Made by a program: the position numbers and the translations under genes. Positions 54,071-60,736 of a stretch of DNA of 64,000 nt are shown here, piece after piece. Position 1 is the stretch's first letter. Every line of letters begins with the position of its first letter. The stretch is from Deltaproteobacteria bacterium (GTDB lineage: Bacteria > SAR324 > NAC60-12). Location of the stretch: contig JAYOTF010000016.1 in the NCBI GenBank assembly GCA_038150265.1, positions 1 through 64,000 on the forward strand. Direction: 5' to 3'. The notes under the pieces are model-generated. The model saw only the letters and a program-made list of their open reading frames with translations. It was not told the DNA's origin and did no database searches.

Positions 54071-54943
54071 TCAGGGACGGTCCCGAGACCGCTCCACGCG
54101 CTCAATGGCGGCATCAAACAACGCCTGACGCTCGCCCAGCCGGGCGCCGTCCCGGTAGTACATGAGGGCTCCGGAGGGATTTCCGCGCCGCTCCTCAAGG
54201 TAGCCAAGAGCATACTGCCGCACCGCCTCATCGGCCTCATGCCCCTCCAGGCGCTCAACCGCTGCCTCATACAGCCCCAGTTCCATCATATCGACGGCAA
54301 GGCGATCGGCCTCAATGCCGGTGCTGACCACTTCCTGCCGCTTGAGGTAGGGCTGCAGAAGCTGCTGCAACGCCTGCTTCATCTGCGCCATCACCTGATG
54401 CGTCGGAAGCGCTGGAACCACGCCGCTGGTGGTCGCGGAAAACGGGGTCGTCAGCGTCCGGGGAGGTCGTCCCGCTTCCTCCAGCGTGACGGTCAGCTGG
54501 CCTGCCTGGGAAACGGAGGTCTCCACAAAGCTGAGGGACGCCTTCCGGGAGCGGCAGGGGTTGCGTTCCTGGAGGTAGTTGCAGGACTTGAGGGACACCG
54601 AGCGGGAGCCCTTGCGGAAGGCATGAGCCGGCTCGGAGACCTGAGCCCTGACGGTCAGGCGGGCGGAGTCTCCGGTGGGCTGCACCTGGTTCTGCCCAAA
54701 CGCCTGCAGGAGCGTTCCGGTGACCTGGGTGTTCTGCCGGATGACGTATCCGTTTTCCTGCAACAGCTGCCGAACCACGTCTGCAGCAGGCTCCGAATCG
54801 GGCGTTACCGGCTCCACCAGCACCGGCTTCGTGGTCAGGACCTCGGCTGGAGGCACCTCGAGGGTGGTTTTCAGTTCTGTGGTGGTGCTGCACCCCAGCA
54901 GGAGCAGCGCCAGTGTGGCGTTAATCCAGCGTTGTTTCAGCAT
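54071..54943 (-). CDS. Hypothetical lipoprotein with C-terminal TPR-like helices
   Basis: Lipobox LLLG-C; C-terminal YALGYLEERRGNPSGALMYY. Confidence 0.75.
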   Translation of the reverse strand: MLKQRWINATLALLLLGCSTTTELKTTLEVPPAEVLTTKPVLVEPVTPDSEPAADVVRQLLQENGYVIRQNTQVTGTLLQAFGQNQVQPTGDSARLTVRAQVSEPAHAFRKGSRSVSLKSCNYLQERNPCRSRKASLSFVETSVSQAGQLTVTLEEAGRPPRTLTTPFSATTSGVVPALPTHQVMAQMKQALQQLLQPYLKRQEVVSTGIEADRLAVDMMELGLYEAAVERLEGHEADEAVRQYALGYLEERRGNPSGALMYYRDGARLGERQALFDAAIERVERSRDRP

Positions 54944-55937
54944 CCAGAGCCTTCAGGTTGCGGAGGGCATCCACGTAGAGGCGCTTGTAGCCTCCGGCAG
55001 CAATGGCCTTGCCGTAGTAGTCGGCAGCCACCACTCGGTCACCATACGCGTGGTAGATCAGCCCCAGGTTGTAGAGGTCGGTCGACGACTCAAACAGCGG
55101 ATCCTGCACCGCCTGCTCCAGCACCGTCCGGGCTTCCTCAAGCTTTCCGGCCTTGAGCAGGTCAATGGCTTCAGAGTGGTTGCCTTCATCAATCTCCAGC
55201 CGCAGCTTGAGGGCCAGGGTGCCCAGCTCATTTGCCAGCAAGCGCCCGAGGCCTCCAGCGACCTTCTGCGCCAGGGCCGCTTCATCTTCATAGGGCGTTT
55301 CCAGCACGCCGGAACCGCTGAGGCTGCGATGGAGGCGGAACTCATCAGCCTCGTTGAGGAAAATGGCTCCGCTGTAGCTCAGGGACACCTTGCCTGTGGC
55401 GCCACTGGTCACCCGGATTTCATCCCAGGCGGAATCTTCGGTTTTCTGGCAAGCCTGATACTTCGGAGGCGGATTCTTGAGGTACTGGCAGCGGCTGGCA
55501 CGCCGGTAGAAGCCCAGGACGCCTTCCTGCTCAAACGCCCCGGTCTGCAGCCCCACCTGGACGCGAAGGCGAATGAGGGCCTCAATGTCAGGGCTCCTGA
55601 AGCCGGAGGTCGGACGCAGGGCCTGCAATCCGGAACGGATGCGCTCATACTCCGCCCGAGTGAGGACGGACTTGCCATCAAAGGAAAGGGTTTCGGCCAC
55701 TGCAGCCGCGACGACCTCCGGATCCAGCGGAACCTGTCCGGAGCGGAGCACCTGTCCGGAACGGGTGGACACCGCCAGCTCGGCAAAGTCCGCGGGGTCG
55801 GCTTCCACCTCAACAACCAGCACCTGTGCTCGCACCAACGCCGGGTCATTTGAAACCGTCCGCTGGATTTCAACAAAGTGCCGGCTGCAGCCTCCCACCA
55901 TGAGGAGCAACCAGGCGGCCCTAACGAGTAATCTCAT
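54921..55937 (-). CDS. Hypothetical lipoprotein with C-terminal TPR
   Basis: Lipobox VGG-C; LYNLGLIYHAYGD...YYGKAI TPR. Confidence 0.75.
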   Translation of the reverse strand: MRLLVRAAWLLLMVGGCSRHFVEIQRTVSNDPALVRAQVLVVEVEADPADFAELAVSTRSGQVLRSGQVPLDPEVVAAAVAETLSFDGKSVLTRAEYERIRSGLQALRPTSGFRSPDIEALIRLRVQVGLQTGAFEQEGVLGFYRRASRCQYLKNPPPKYQACQKTEDSAWDEIRVTSGATGKVSLSYSGAIFLNEADEFRLHRSLSGSGVLETPYEDEAALAQKVAGGLGRLLANELGTLALKLRLEIDEGNHSEAIDLLKAGKLEEARTVLEQAVQDPLFESSTDLYNLGLIYHAYGDRVVAADYYGKAIAAGGYKRLYVDALRNLKALDAETTLD

Positions 55938-56493
55938 ACGCTCGCTTCTCCTCCACGGTGCTGGTACCGGCTCCGGTTTCCCCCTTCGCCTGCAGCCTGA
56001 GGGCATACCGTTCTCCAGCACTCAGGGCCAAAACCAGCTCGGTGCCTTCGTCAATGCGGTAGAGCAGGACGCTGGCATGCGTGGCCGTCCCCTCGGTTTG
56101 TTCAGTGGTCCGGACCAGCTCATTCCAGCTACGGCTCCAGTTGCAGCGCTCCCCGCAGCTTCCGGACTCTGATCGGTCTTCCAGGCGGGTCACCGCATAC
56201 GACCGGGGACGCCCGTTCACCTTCCGGTTCAGGCCAAAGAGGACGTAGTAGCGTCCGGGAGTTTCCTGGTTGAAGTCTGCAAAGCGTGGCACCCCCCGGA
56301 CCGAAACCCCCTTCGCCTGAAGCTGCTGAATCAGCTCCTGCTGGAGGGGGTTGTCCATGCACTCGCAGAAGAGCACCGTGTATCCGGAACGGATCGGGAC
56401 CGGTTTGGCCGGGAGGTCGTGAACCCGCACCGACTGGTCACTGCAGCCCCCCGTCAGCACCAGCAGGACGAATCCGAGCAGCGCCTTCCTCAT
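55921..56493 (-). CDS. Hypothetical lipoprotein
   Basis: MRKALLGFVLLVLTGG-C lipobox; overlaps both neighbours. Confidence 0.7.
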   Translation of the reverse strand: MRKALLGFVLLVLTGGCSDQSVRVHDLPAKPVPIRSGYTVLFCECMDNPLQQELIQQLQAKGVSVRGVPRFADFNQETPGRYYVLFGLNRKVNGRPRSYAVTRLEDRSESGSCGERCNWSRSWNELVRTTEQTEGTATHASVLLYRIDEGTELVLALSAGERYALRLQAKGETGAGTSTVEEKRAYEITR

Positions 56494-57188
56494 AAGCGCC
56501 ACCCCACGGTGAAGGCCACAAACACCGAAGCCTCCGGGTTGGTGTCGGTCACAAATTGCTGGTACGTTGCCTGTTGACGCTCCCAGACCGGGTCGGAGGT
56601 CGTCGCAAACTCGAGGCTGGTTTCGGTCACTGGAGTGGTCCGGGAGAGGGCAGCCAGCTGGACGGCATAGTAAGCGTCTTGCTGGTCGTACCCGATCCAG
56701 GTGTTGGAGTACTGCAGGAAGGGACCCAGGTAAACCACCTCAAGGGAGGCCTGCTGTTCGGTCACCACAGCGTTGGTCGTGCGCTGCTGCACCACCTCAT
56801 ACTGCGTGGCTTGTCGCATCAGGCCGAGGTCCCAGCGGTGGACGTACTGCTCGAAGCGGTAGTACAGCTCCAGGGTTCCGCTCTGCAGGGTCAGTTCCGC
56901 CTGATAGGTGCGGGTTCCCACCGCCTCGGTCTGGGACTGCAGGCGCTCATCGGTGCTCGCGGTCAGGAAGTTGTAACCGACCCCGTACCCCTTCACGCTG
57001 GTCACCCCCATTTCTACGGACACCGGCAGGAACGCGTCCATCCGTCCCGAGAAATACGGGAGGCTGAGGCCAAGGTCCCAGGTAGCAGCCTGTCCGGAAG
57101 CGGGAAGGAGTCCCACCAGCAGAACCACCAGCGCCCCCGTGTGACGCAACCGGGCCTGAAGGTGTGGCAAAACAGGAGGCAACAGCAT
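56490..57188 (-). CDS. Putative outer-membrane beta-barrel protein
   Basis: Signal peptide ending GQA-A; alternating amphipathic strands; C-terminal FVAFTVGWRL beta-signal-like end. Confidence 0.6.
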   Translation of the reverse strand: MLLPPVLPHLQARLRHTGALVVLLVGLLPASGQAATWDLGLSLPYFSGRMDAFLPVSVEMGVTSVKGYGVGYNFLTASTDERLQSQTEAVGTRTYQAELTLQSGTLELYYRFEQYVHRWDLGLMRQATQYEVVQQRTTNAVVTEQQASLEVVYLGPFLQYSNTWIGYDQQDAYYAVQLAALSRTTPVTETSLEFATTSDPVWERQQATYQQFVTDTNPEASVFVAFTVGWRL

Positions 57189-57369
57189 CCGAAAAAATAA
57201 GGGAACGAGGAGCCTTGCGGCAAGGAGCGTCAGTCTGCGAAACTTCCGGACAAGTTGCAATTGCTTTGGGGGCGTCCCGCCACCTCGCTGCAGCGGAAGC
57301 CCTTCCGCCCGTGTTCCAGGGCACCACTCCAAGGTGCTTTGAGATCGTGCGGGAGGCCAACACCGAGAA

Positions 57370-58239
57370 TTACGGACGCGCTTCGGATGGAGGCGTGGGG
57401 GGACGCTCCACCTTCACCCAACGGGGCATTCCCAAGCGAGCATCGGTCAGCTCGTAACGATAGGTCAGGTACGGAAGCAGGGCCCGGCGGCACTGCAAGC
57501 GAATGGTACCGTCGGCCTCCAGCTCATAGTCCAGTTCCAATGCGGCCCGCTCGCTCGCGGCAAGACGTGGATTGACCTGATAACACACTTCCACAATCTC
57601 GTGCCAATCTCGGTCTTCCTTCCCACTGCGCCACTCAATCCACTGATCCGTCTCCGGATCATGCGTGATGGGCACCACGCTCAGGATCCGTCCCAGGTTG
57701 AAGTCCATGTAACGCCGACGCTGGTGACAAAAGGCCCGCAGGTGGTAGCGGTAGTCGGCATAAGCAATCTGGTTGGGAGACACCACCCGCTCCGAGCGCC
57801 GAGACGCTGATTGATAGGTCATCTGAAGCACCTGCTGCTCCAGCAGGGCTTGCACGAGCACACGGACCACCTCCTCATCCAACCGGATCCGGGTCAACGA
57901 GTCCACATCTTCCACCCGGAACTCCTCCCAATCCTGATTTTCCCGATACTGTGAAATCAGCCACCCGGCTCGGATCGCTCCCAAAAAGAGACGAGGCGAG
58001 GCGTGGATGTGCTGAGGCTGGAAGGCATCTTTCATGATCTTTTGCTTGCGAGAGGCATCATAACGGAGCGCCTCCGGATGCTGCTCTTCATATCGGCGCA
58101 AGGACTCCTGGGCACTTTGCCGATTCACCTCAAACACCTCCATCAGGTGCCGTGCCTTAACGCCTCCGTACCAATTCACCATATGCTCAATGAAGGCAAA
58201 GCGCAGCAGTTCCGAAATCTTCATGTGGATGATTTTCAT
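57370..58239 (-). CDS. WYL-domain transcriptional regulator (CapW/BrxR type)
   Basis: wHTH RFAFIEHMVNWYGGVKARHLMEVFEV...YDASRK; WYL domain YQS...SPNQI...RYHLRAFCHQRRRYMDFNLGRI; C-terminal NPRL...DY...RRALLPY. Confidence 0.9.
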   Translation of the reverse strand: MKIIHMKISELLRFAFIEHMVNWYGGVKARHLMEVFEVNRQSAQESLRRYEEQHPEALRYDASRKQKIMKDAFQPQHIHASPRLFLGAIRAGWLISQYRENQDWEEFRVEDVDSLTRIRLDEEVVRVLVQALLEQQVLQMTYQSASRRSERVVSPNQIAYADYRYHLRAFCHQRRRYMDFNLGRILSVVPITHDPETDQWIEWRSGKEDRDWHEIVEVCYQVNPRLAASERAALELDYELEADGTIRLQCRRALLPYLTYRYELTDARLGMPRWVKVERPPTPPSEARP

Positions 58240-58299
58240 ACAGGTTGGCCCCTCGCGCCAATTGACGAAACCCGCGGGCCTGTTTAGTTTGAAGGCACA

Positions 58300-58336
58300 G
58301 TCACCCGTTGCAGTACCGGGGTGACGGATCCTGTCA
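58300..58336. promoter_or_regulatory. Candidate WYL-regulator operator (overlapping inverted repeats)
   Basis: GTCACCC-N12-GGGTGAC (58300-58325) and TGAC-N7-GTCA (58322-58336) between divergent genes. Confidence 0.45.
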
Positions 58337-58390
58337 GTCTTTTGTCTGGGGCAGTGTTCCTCAGGCCGCCTCAAATCCCAAGGAGATTTT

Positions 58391-59050
58391 ATGCAAAACC
58401 AGTCAATCGAAATTTTCCGAAAAACACTAAATTCATTCTACCAAGACCAGGGGAAAGACGCCCCAAACGATGTCACGTACCTGACTGCCGCCTATGAGCA
58501 TACAGAAGCCCTCTGGTGGGAGAACCTCAAACGCGTCCCAACCGTACGGTACCTGCTCATCGGAGAAGCGCCTCTTTATGGGGAAAAGCAGGCCTACATC
58601 TACAACGACCAGACTCCGGGCACCGCGTTTCTGGGGAAGCCCACCATCGCGCAGCTGCTCCGCCTTCAGGGAGAAAACGGAGCCCTCGCTGACAAAGCAG
58701 CGATGCTTGAGGCCATGCGTCAGCTGGGATTGGTGGTCCTGGATCTGTTTCCCTTTGCCTTCAACGCGCAGACGCAGTTCAACTATGCGGGCCTCTCTCC
58801 ACAGACCCGTGCCACCTTGGCAGAGCAGTGTGGGCCCTGGCACTTGAGCCCCAAACTGGAAGCCCTCCTGCAGAAGGGGCCCAAGGTGCTGCCCTGCGGA
58901 ATTCGTTACGTCCGTCTGGAGGCCTTTGCCAAACAGGTGCTCCAGGCAGTCGCTCCGGATCCTCAACGCCTTCAGATTGAGCTGGCCTGCCAGCGTCGCG
59001 CCAACGCCCCCCTGGACCTGGAACAGCTGGCTCGGCACCTGGCTTCCTGA
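58391..59050 (+). CDS. Hypothetical protein, possible uracil-DNA-glycosylase-like fold
   Basis: Strong RBS AAGGAG; YLLIGEAP motif followed by YIY and GLVVLDLFP. Confidence 0.7.
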   Translation: MQNQSIEIFRKTLNSFYQDQGKDAPNDVTYLTAAYEHTEALWWENLKRVPTVRYLLIGEAPLYGEKQAYIYNDQTPGTAFLGKPTIAQLLRLQGENGALADKAAMLEAMRQLGLVVLDLFPFAFNAQTQFNYAGLSPQTRATLAEQCGPWHLSPKLEALLQKGPKVLPCGIRYVRLEAFAKQVLQAVAPDPQRLQIELACQRRANAPLDLEQLARHLAS

Positions 59051-59141
59051 ATGCCTTCAGGCGCTTCCACACAGAAGGCTCCAGGCCACTTCCTGCAACG
59101 GCTCTGTCGGCTCTTGCGACTCTGCAACCTTGAGACGTCCA

Positions 59142-59300
59142 ATGATCAGTCCCCTGACCATTTTCGTAGTTGTGATTTATTTTGGTTGGCCCCTGCTGCT
59201 GGCCATTGCCATCTGGCAGGCCCTGCCTCAGGGGTTCCGGAACTTTCTGCAGCTGCTGTTCTGGGGGATGATGCTCGTCATCCTCATCACCTCGTGCTAG
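59142..59300 (+). CDS. Small 2-TM membrane protein (52 aa)
   Basis: MISPLTIFVVVIYFGWPLLLAIAIW...LLFWGMMLVILITSC; two hydrophobic helices. Confidence 0.55.
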   Translation: MISPLTIFVVVIYFGWPLLLAIAIWQALPQGFRNFLQLLFWGMMLVILITSC

Positions 59301-59341: not shown

Positions 59342-60736
59342 TCATGAGAGCAGCTCCGGAAGCCGACACTGCACGCACCCTTCGTAGAAGTTGTGGCAGA
59401 AGTCCTTGTGCAGCTCCAGCAGGCCCTGACGCTCCCCCAGCCCATTGAACGTGAGCCCGGGGAACTGCTTGAGGTGCAACCGGTGTTGCATGAAGCGCAG
59501 CTTCTGGTTGCTGGCTTCTCCGGGAAGCGCCAGGAACAGCCGAAAGAGCAGGCGCTCCAGCTCCTCCTCTCCGCGCTCCCGGGCATACGCCACAAAAAAC
59601 GGCAGCAGCGCGTTGGCCCACAGCAGCACCTGCCGCTCGCGTCCCACCAGCTCCCGTCCGGAGCCCAGGTTCCACGGTTCCCAGTCCGGAGTCGTCCACA
59701 AGGCGGCAGTACGAGCCAGGGCCTCCTTCCGGAGGGAGCCCGATGACGCATGAGGCTTCAGGTCCACCAGCACCTGTAGCCAGGCCCGGAGCAACCCGGT
59801 CTGTTGCGTCTGCTGGAGGTGGTGGAACAGGGCCAGCAGGCGACGCTCTGGCGCGTGGTGAGGGCGGTAGCGCTGACGGGGCGCCTGGACCTGCTGCTGA
59901 TCCGGACGTGCCTCCCAGAGGCTCTTCCAGTGCAGGAACTCCCGTCGCAGCGTCGGGTCGGTTCCTTCCGGAGGAGTCGCCTGAAGCAGGCCACAGGCGC
60001 CAAACCAGACGGACAGCACCTGAGGACGGCTGCTGCGCCACGGCTGGGCCAGGGCCTTTTCCAAAGAGCGCAAGGGGTACCGCTGGGCCAGCTCCTCAAA
60101 ACGAGCGGCATGCGCGGTTTGCCCCAGGGCCTTGAAGAGCTGCTGGAAGAGCAACTCCTCCGGATCCTCCCGGGACCACCGTTCCTGAAGCACCTGGGCT
60201 CGGGCCAGAAGCCGTTGTTCCGCCGCATGCGCCACCACGCGCCTGAGGGTCATTTCCTGCTCGGGCCCCAGCGACGCCCCGCACCGCCCAGGCAGCTCGT
60301 CCTGCTCCCGGAGCTGAGTGCGCCACTCCGGAAGCGCCTGCTGCAGGTCCTCGAGGCTCTGGCTCAGGTACGGCGCCAGCTCCAGCTGCGGAACCGACTG
60401 GCCGTCTTCCCGGACGATGGCCCGCTGCGAATCCCCGTAAAGAATCACGTGCAGCACCACCGCATTGTAGGCGGGGTTTTCATGATGCCGGTGGTGGTAC
60501 CATCCGGAACTGCGCCAGTGCACCTCCACCGCGCCCAGGGCCTCTCGGGCTGAGGCACCGCTTCCCAGCTCAATGCGAGCCTCCTGAAAGTCCGGGCCCT
60601 CGCTGGGGTTCCGCCACCCGGGAAACGTCACGGTCACCGGCTCCTGGTCAAGGGTCTGCAGGGGTGCGTGGTGGAACCGCTGTTGGCTCCAGATCAGCTG
60701 CAGGAAGTCTTCATGAGGGAAAGTCGAGGCAGGCAT
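59342..60736 (-). CDS. DUF2851 family protein (start approximate)
   Basis: EDFLQLIW, GPDF, GAVEVH, WYHHRHHENPAYNAVVLHV, QGLLEL..C...C..C C-terminus. Confidence 0.8.
   Translation of the reverse strand: MPASTFPHEDFLQLIWSQQRFHHAPLQTLDQEPVTVTFPGWRNPSEGPDFQEARIELGSGASAREALGAVEVHWRSSGWYHHRHHENPAYNAVVLHVILYGDSQRAIVREDGQSVPQLELAPYLSQSLEDLQQALPEWRTQLREQDELPGRCGASLGPEQEMTLRRVVAHAAEQRLLARAQVLQERWSREDPEELLFQQLFKALGQTAHAARFEELAQRYPLRSLEKALAQPWRSSRPQVLSVWFGACGLLQATPPEGTDPTLRREFLHWKSLWEARPDQQQVQAPRQRYRPHHAPERRLLALFHHLQQTQQTGLLRAWLQVLVDLKPHASSGSLRKEALARTAALWTTPDWEPWNLGSGRELVGRERQVLLWANALLPFFVAYARERGEEELERLLFRLFLALPGEASNQKLRFMQHRLHLKQFPGLTFNGLGERQGLLELHKDFCHNFYEGCVQCRLPELLS

Follow-up and report, generated by a model that had tools for sequence, protein, structure and literature searches.

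A foreign three-gene islet in a SAR324 bacterium pairs a BrxR/CapW-type regulator with a predicted uracil-DNA glycosylase fold and is probably related to DNA-glycosylase phage defenses

Introduction

What is the role of a small islet of foreign DNA that sets a transcriptional regulator of the BrxR/CapW kind head-to-head with a protein that matches no model in Pfam, NCBIfam, or PADLOC? The islet (positions 57273 through 59349) lies in a 64,000-nucleotide stretch of contig JAYOTF010000016.1 (assembly GCA_038150265.1; positions 1 through 64,000, forward strand; herein the window) from an uncultured marine Deltaproteobacteria bacterium of the SAR324 lineage. It holds three genes, which encode the regulator, a 219-residue protein with a predicted uracil-DNA glycosylase (UDG) superfamily fold, and a 52-residue hydrophobic protein; an earlier note on this DNA had proposed them as a candidate anti-phage glycosylase module. 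The evidence presented here indicates that the islet is probably a relative of the DNA-glycosylase phage defenses. For the more specific reading, that the locus is a repressor-gated base-excision defense carried as a horizontally acquired three-gene islet, we estimate a probability of roughly 50%.

To our knowledge, defense by glycosylases has been recognized only since 2024, and the UDG-superfamily enzymes characterized in this role so far are Brig1, Brig2, and Brig3. Brig1 is reported to act on α-glucosyl-hydroxymethylcytosine (PMC11078745), Brig2, with more than 500 homologs, on modified thymidines (10.1101/2025.10.29.685425), and Brig3, together with its helper BapA, on 5-hydroxymethylcytosine (10.64898/2026.02.25.707755). 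Regulators of the kind found in the islet are likewise tied to defense in published accounts: defense systems are reported to accompany 48% of BrxR homologs (PMC9122601); capW genes are described as lying upstream of the target operon on the opposite strand, with the protein bound to palindromes of ∼20 bp over the −10 site (PMC9122588); and single-stranded DNA (ssDNA) is reported to release CapW from DNA (PMC11662680).

Results

The islet is accessory, foreign DNA

The islet is ∼2 kb in size and contains three open reading frames (ORFs): the 289-residue regulator gene (57370 through 58239, minus strand), the gene for the 219-residue protein (58391 through 59050, plus strand), and the gene for the 52-residue protein, which has about two transmembrane segments (59142 through 59300, plus strand). 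The regulator and 219-residue genes stand head-to-head across a 151-bp spacer. The ORF list bears out the earlier note on all three gene positions and on this divergent arrangement, and the AT-richer 5′ end that it had seen in the 219-residue gene is part of a dip in G+C content to 0.52 to 0.55 across 57750 through 58750, compared with 0.62 to 0.68 in the flanks.

DNA from two genomes of the same genus (G001 and G002) matches the window up to 57272 and 57093, respectively, and resumes at 59350, with nothing in between; neither genome contains the 219-residue family. The slot that the islet occupies, between an outer-membrane-like gene (56490 through 57332) and a DUF2851 gene (59342 through 60862), varies within the genus. 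In G002 the islet flanks are found on two separate contigs (G002:C9 and G002:C50; loci L006 and L004, respectively) and run into different genes, of which, judging by their translations, one appears to be cytochrome-c-peroxidase-like and the other HicB-like. A search of the islet boundaries revealed no convincing tRNA, integrase, or flanking direct repeats.

The family is equally sparse on a wider scale. It is present in one of the 61 relatives searched and in one of 88 genomes of the phylum, the sole positive in each case being the host itself (G000; genome completeness 97.8%), and the arrangement of regulator, UDG-fold, and small membrane genes is missing from the 87 other phylum genomes. 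A single match from a contig scan of the genome with a five-sequence alignment lies antisense to a YebC-like gene and was discarded as spurious. We conclude that the islet is accessory DNA of foreign origin, probably acquired horizontally.

All three genes are maintained by purifying selection. Measured against homologs that are 57 to 77% identical, Nei–Gojobori ratios of nonsynonymous to synonymous substitution (dN/dS) are 0.09 for the regulator gene (computed against L011), 0.19 for the 219-residue gene, and 0.23 for the 52-residue gene; these values are approximate because synonymous sites are near saturation.

The 219-residue protein belongs to a large unnamed family with a predicted UDG fold

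The 219-residue protein had been described as an orphan, which proved wrong. A word-indexed search with the protein itself returns four relatives, and a profile search of 1.84 billion representatives (clusters at 50% identity) returns 243 at E ≤ 1e-3, of which 175 also reach E ≤ 1e-10; most are 200 to 240 residues long. One longer member (P0040; 429 residues) has a C-terminal extension of ∼200 residues (about 230 through 429) with no recognized family. At another locus (L031:179-1739), a member is followed in tandem by a protein of 250 residues that scores above the Pfam threshold for UDG (26.4 vs. 24.3 bits), so that two UDG-superfamily genes, unrelated in sequence, lie side by side.

An AlphaFold2 model computed with the family alignment has a predicted local distance difference test score of 96.1 and a predicted template modeling score of 0.92. 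It comprises an α/β/α sandwich in which a four-stranded parallel sheet (strands 54 through 58, 114 through 118, 167 through 171, and 194 through 198) is flanked by helices, and it is superposable on solved UDGs over most of the chain. Foldseek against the Protein Data Bank (PDB) gives nothing at E ≤ 1e-3 (best E 5.7e-3; template modeling scores of 0.39 to 0.46); among the matches listed, all are UDG, SMUG1, TDG, or poxvirus D4 except a cutinase (1ffd, rank 42), and no Brig entry is found among the PDB structure matches. An unbiased VIA search of 48,161 chains places UDG-superfamily members in all of the top 15 positions. Among the 30 nearest clusters in the ESM Atlas, one has PF03167 on 24% of its members. 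The protein is thus confidently predicted to have the UDG-superfamily fold and is a candidate DNA glycosylase; the UDG-like fold proposed in the earlier note stands on structure prediction and fold searches, and lacks the support of sequence profiles (see Discussion).

In an alignment of 107 full-length members, residues E59, P61, R172, and Y173 are invariant, and conservation is 90% or higher at L31, W42, A60, Y69, Y71, N72, F80, K102, G113, D118, P121, T128, Y132, and K155. These invariant and near-invariant residues cluster where strands 1, 2, and 3 end on their C-terminal side, which is the place at which UDGs form their pocket. The YLLIGEAP motif, to which the earlier note had drawn attention, occupies residues 54 through 61, so that E59-A60-P61 directly follows the first strand, where the water-activating loop of UDGs (motif A; a polar or acidic residue, any residue, and Pro) would lie; this I-G-E-A-P segment resembles the I-G-E-G-P of the host's own family-4 UDG, although hhalign does not align the two. 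D118, after strand 2, may take the place of the invariant Asn in the family-4 Y-I-T-N segment, as inferred from secondary structure. According to the published descriptions, Brig1 requires an acidic residue, Glu147, where repair UDGs have Asn (PMC11078745), and Brig3 requires Asp127, with N50-P51-S52 at the glycosidic bond (10.64898/2026.02.25.707755). If the D127 site of Brig3 is positionally equivalent to D118, as we assume here, an acidic residue would be common to all three proteins at this point. Since D118 would stand where repair UDGs have their base-reading Asn, the target may be an amino-bearing base of the cytosine or adenine type. Toward the C terminus, residues 205 through 209 read N-A-P-L-D in the subclade of the window protein and N-M-S-L-D-R or G-G-G-I-D in many other members, a segment that may be comparable with the N-P-S-G-L-S of MUG-type enzymes. 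An Fe-S cluster was considered for the family and excluded because it has no conserved cysteines.

The regulator is of the BrxR/CapW type and faces a shared control region

Although the open frame of the regulator gene reaches back to a TTG (58374), we place its start at the ATG at 58239, which is preceded by a GAGG-type ribosome site and at which the homologs also begin. The product contains a Pfam WYL domain (E 3e-13) and matches generic WYL models only in PADLOC (E 4e-15). By phmmer against PDB sequences, residues 9 through 264 of 289 align with Acinetobacter BrxR (7t8k, E 5.3e-29), followed by CapW (7tb5, E 7e-22; 9c5g, E 2e-20; 7tb6, E 1e-16) and 7qfz (E 3e-14). Because it aligns at full length with solved BrxR and CapW, we assign it as a winged helix-turn-helix, WYL, WCX repressor of the BrxR/CapW kind, in agreement with the earlier note. 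PADLOC matches nothing else in the module, and the statement in that note that no known defense system is recognizable here also holds.

The resemblance to CapW and BrxR extends from full-length similarity to gene order, since the regulator gene, like capW, is found on the opposite strand ahead of the operon that it presumably controls. The difference lies in the presumed targets, which are here a UDG-fold enzyme and a 52-residue membrane protein rather than genes for cyclic oligonucleotide-based antiphage signaling (CBASS), bacteriophage exclusion (BREX), or restriction.

The divergent control region (58240 through 58390) contains a candidate promoter for the plus-strand genes, TTGACG (58262 through 58267) followed after 17 nt by TAGTTT (58285 through 58290). 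In an alignment of the window with three related loci (L011, L010, and L012), the invariant columns include TTGAC, then, 17 nt on, positions 1, 2, and 6 of a T-A-n-n-n-T hexamer, and finally CAAGGAGA before the ATG. We read the conserved TTGAC and T-A-n-n-n-T columns as a putative promoter of the rightward genes; a consensus promoter scanner called no promoter in the spacer. The strong ribosome-binding site ascribed earlier to the 219-residue gene is present as AAGGAG (58380 through 58385) and is the same in all four aligned loci. Beside the candidate −10 element lies an imperfect 14-nt inverted repeat (58293 through 58306 and 58319 through 58332), which is weak (79% complementary) and, by eye, is not kept in L011; no operator could be defined in the spacer from the four-locus alignment and an inverted-repeat search.

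The three genes travel as a unit in the closest loci

We examined 80 loci, drawn from 177 metagenomic relatives and falling into 32 clusters at 80% identity. In all three of the closest (L010 and L011, 65% identity; L012, 44%) a WYL gene lies divergently upstream of the UDG-fold gene, with L010 keeping only its first eight residues at the contig edge. The third gene of the module recurs as well: L010 encodes a 51-residue homolog in the same place (57 to 63% identity, with the same MISPLT start), L011 shows the same start codon and first residues before its sequence ends, and L012 has an 80-residue ORF with two transmembrane segments in the same place. The 52-residue protein has no Pfam match. 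The outer flanks differ: the window has the outer-membrane-like and DUF2851 genes there, L012 has RmuC, and the sequence in L010 and L011 is unrelated. Because the arrangement recurs in close loci while the flanks differ, we conclude that the three genes travel as a unit. A 93-residue fragment beside the L011 module was considered as an integrase and dropped for want of Pfam support.

Beyond these close relatives the module dissolves. Searched by phmmer with the window regulator, L011 and L012 give matches and the 77 loci outside the closest three give none, and a small hydrophobic ORF lies downstream in five of the 27 family loci with enough DNA, of which two belong to the WYL subclade and the other three (of 24) are unconvincing. 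The WYL and membrane partners proposed in the earlier note are therefore a property of the L010 through L012 subclade (three of three loci) and not of the family at large (0 of 77).

The family differs from characterized glycosylases

The Brig enzymes are the nearest functional comparison. The NCBIfam model for Brig1 (NF047634; cut-off of 230 bits) matches neither the 219-residue protein nor the host genome, and Brig3 is reported with N-P-S where the new family has E-A-P after strand 1. The word WYL is absent from the main texts on Brig1, Brig2, and Brig3, and a small membrane partner is not described there. Brig2 and Brig3 were compared by description only, and the new family may coincide with the Brig2 family or with one of 11 integron UDG-like clusters (10.1101/2025.10.29.685425). 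Among the papers listed in literature searches, none describes a WYL-regulated UDG-like gene; as far as such searches show, the combination of a UDG-fold enzyme with a repressor of the BrxR/CapW type and a very small membrane protein is undescribed.

Two repair families were compared in sequence. SMUG1 (family 3 UDG; human SMUG1–DNA complex, 9gm2; Geobacter, 5h93 and 5h98) shares 13 to 16% identity with the 219-residue protein, which shows no similarity to Pfam UDG at the level of profiles. SMUG1 serves in housekeeping repair; the 219-residue gene, by contrast, is accessory and stands with a defense-type repressor. The family-4 UDG (UDGa) of the host (G000:C73:2265-2705), the only gene found by a PF03167 search of its genome, has Fe-S cysteines, an H-P-S motif B, and a K-C-R-P-P segment that are missing in the new family. 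This family-4 gene is core, being present in 26 of 26 relatives, in contrast to the accessory 219-residue gene.

Some relatives lie near defense genes or precede a variable cargo slot

To describe the wider context, we took one representative locus for each of the 32 clusters and scanned the genes flanking the family member, to a depth of three in either direction (113 neighboring proteins of at least 60 residues). PADLOC matched 19 of the 113 at E ≤ 1e-8. A defense-type gene lies within three genes in 10 of the 32 loci, nine by PADLOC (with PriCT/PrimPol, WYL, and RmuC set aside) and one by Pfam; these counts rest on partial data because 13 of the 32 loci are under 3 kb. The PADLOC matches comprise ThsA with ThsB of Thoeris (L037); an NsnA/GmrSD-like protein with an SMC-type ATPase and a PD-DExK protein (L046); type I restriction R subunits (L033 and L084); AbiEii (L042); PDC-S01 (L050); a caspase (L081); SoFic with a methyltransferase (L088); and CapP, next to a helix-turn-helix protein (L075). 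Pfam identifies SIR2 with a STAND nucleoside triphosphatase (L063) and, in L085 and L086, toxin-antitoxin genes. As a rough control, PADLOC at the same threshold matches four of the 50 remaining window ORFs, in each case generically (a UvrD-type helicase, two ATPase domains, and a sigma-54-type AAA domain). On this informal comparison, which sets the 10 loci and the variable cargo slot described next against generic matches in the window, relatives of the 219-residue gene are associated with defense genes, as the earlier note would have predicted.

The cargo slot is seen in two large clusters from gut metagenomes (26 and 20 loci), in which the family gene directly follows a PriCT-type primase gene; such a primase is present in 38 of the 80 loci. 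In the 26-locus cluster the cargo is Thoeris in 12 loci, Hachiman HamA/HamB in L013, an OLD/AriA/GajA-like ATPase in L029, and MjaI-type restriction-modification in L038 and L034; four more loci carry genes of the same sizes as HamA/HamB of L013, a likeness of size only. In the 20-locus cluster it is SIR2-STAND in 11 loci, a PD-T4-6/Stk2-like kinase with PP2C in L055, BglII-type restriction-modification in L056, and an integrase in L057. The slot lies ∼100 to 300 bp downstream of the family member (L037, L013, L029, L038, L063, L055, and L056). The pair of PriCT primase and UDG-fold protein with exchangeable cargo looks like a defense hotspot of an integrative element.

Relatives are almost absent from collections of mobile DNA: none was confirmed in 2.9 million viral contigs (searched by pattern), none was found in 72,556 plasmids, and one was found in 50,697 phage records. 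A phage origin of the family was rejected on this near-absence. In L075 (4241 through 6236), an HTH_31 protein comes directly after the family member, together with an M78 peptidase for which the PADLOC CapP model gives a match (E 3.8e-13); such a CapH/CapP-like pair would be a second type of defense-associated regulator pair beside the family.

Discussion

A repressor-gated base-excision defense would work as follows. The BrxR/CapW-type protein, as a homodimeric repressor bound to the shared 151-bp region, would keep the rightward operon low. Phage attack or DNA damage would yield ssDNA by-products that bind the WYL domain and release the repressor, as for CapW. The induced 219-residue enzyme would then flip out a noncanonical, phage-modified base and receive it in a pocket along the C-terminal edge of the sheet, formed by E59-A60-P61 after strand 1, D118 and P121 after strand 2, R172-Y173 after strand 3, and conserved aromatics, and would cut the N-glycosidic bond; the resulting abasic sites would block phage replication, as with Brig1, Brig2, and Brig3. 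The 52-residue membrane protein would be a conserved accessory.

A number of observations weigh against this reading. At the level of sequence, membership in the UDG superfamily finds no significant match: the 219-residue protein has none at E ≤ 0.1 in Pfam (including PF03167), NCBIfam, or PADLOC, and hhalign gives probabilities of 0.75% against 25 family-4 UDGs from relatives and of 0.2% against the Pfam-positive UDG neighbor in L031. Matches in a PDB sequence search proved spurious, being summed weak repeats (pentatricopeptide designs) or WW-domain fragments, and every family member that bears a name is called "hypothetical." The family alignment contains no His-containing or H-P-S motif B, and in the segment after strand 4 no column is 90% conserved across the 107 sequences. 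With respect to context, 22 of the 32 representative loci have no defense-type neighbor, the surroundings of the islet in the window are housekeeping genes and not a defense island, and the constancy of the gene beside variable cargo in the gut elements fits a mobile-element backbone gene too. Finally, the WYL regulators DriD and SiwR are reported to govern DNA-damage repair regulons.

The last of these points leads to an account in which the 219-residue protein is a damage-inducible DNA-repair glycosylase under a WYL regulator like DriD, PafBC, or SiwR, and removes a damaged host base, for example an oxidized or deaminated pyrimidine, with no phage role. Repair enzymes (SMUG1 and UNG) provide the solved structures closest to the model; some WYL regulators that act in damage responses are reported to sense ssDNA as well (PMC10853764, PMC10693628, and PMC12041258); RmuC adjoins the module in L012; and the islet lies outside a defense island here. 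We think this account unlikely. The regulator is far closer to BrxR and CapW (E 5e-29 to 1e-16) than to PafBC, which it matches at E 0.065 only in the same phmmer search, and family neighbors include defense systems and mobile-element genes. The gene is found in one of 88 phylum genomes, as opposed to the canonical UDG in 26 of 26 relatives, and a core repair role is unlikely because the gene is so patchy.

The fold could also serve recognition without catalysis, as a base-flipping sensor of modified or foreign nucleic acid that signals to a separate effector, either the small membrane protein or a fused PIN or HEPN RNase, and so brings about abortive infection. Domain fusions in the family lend themselves to this idea, as they join the UDG-fold domain to PIN (P0122, E 1.7e-16) and to the DNA- or RNA-binding modules HARE-HTH, sigma-70 region 1.1, and S4. 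In P0023 and P0028, residues 1 through 170 form a helical N-terminal region in which an R-N-x-F-x-H motif occurs; its HEPN matches are weak (E 0.026 to 0.085) and fall below cut-offs. A membrane ORF is kept downstream in the WYL subclade. Against this, most members (about 200 to 240 residues) stand alone with no obvious effector, outside the subclade the gene is not followed by the membrane ORF, and an invariant Glu together with a near-invariant Asp at strand ends fits catalysis. A noncatalytic sensor is for these reasons a doubtful alternative to a base-excising enzyme.

A rather improbable explanation is that the enzyme is a backbone or counter-defense gene of a mobile element, which serves its carrier (it might condition the carrier's DNA or incoming DNA) and merely travels beside defense cargo. 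The gene does stay constant after the PriCT-type primase while later genes vary in the two gut clusters, an integrase lies near it in L057, and one record deposited as phage has a homolog. However, the family is nearly absent from viral contigs, plasmids, and phage records; in the window and in L010 through L012 the gene is paired with a defense-type repressor, with no replication or transfer genes nearby; and in loci that lack a primase its neighbors include type I restriction R subunits, a GmrSD-like gene, and AbiEii.

Least probable is a gated two-stage defense, in which the ssDNA-sensing repressor would free a UDG-fold sensor whose acidic pocket (E59 and D118) reads a phage-specific modified base, and a flipped-base or abasic signal would pass to an agent of cell shutdown, here the 52-residue membrane protein and in other members a fused PIN or HEPN RNase; if true, the UDG fold would act as a modified-DNA sensor for abortive infection and not only as a DNA-damaging effector.

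The locus adds a large unannotated family of 243 clusters with a predicted UDG fold, invisible to Pfam, NCBIfam, and PADLOC, that occurs in defense hotspots from marine SAR324 to gut bacteria. If the 219-residue protein is an active, repressor-gated glycosylase, it would widen the catalog of modified bases open to bacterial attack, provide a compact 2-kb cassette in which a WYL repressor gates a DNA-damaging effector, and offer a new base-specific glycosylase for mapping DNA modifications.

Genes flanking the islet

To the left of the islet, four minus-strand genes (54071 through 54943, 54921 through 56021, 55921 through 56502, and 56490 through 57332) form a run from 54071 to 57332 in which starts and ends overlap. 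The run is kept in the same-genus genomes and has no family assignment except TPR repeats in one gene; its products have lipoprotein-like N termini, and the last looks β-barrel-like. To the right, the DUF2851 gene (59342 through 60862, minus strand; Pfam E 2.5e-58) is divergent from a plus-strand gene (60799 through 61818) that is probably era, judging from its G1 motif. The longest ORFs of these two genes share 64 bp at their 5′ ends, and therefore one of the annotated starts is probably too far upstream.

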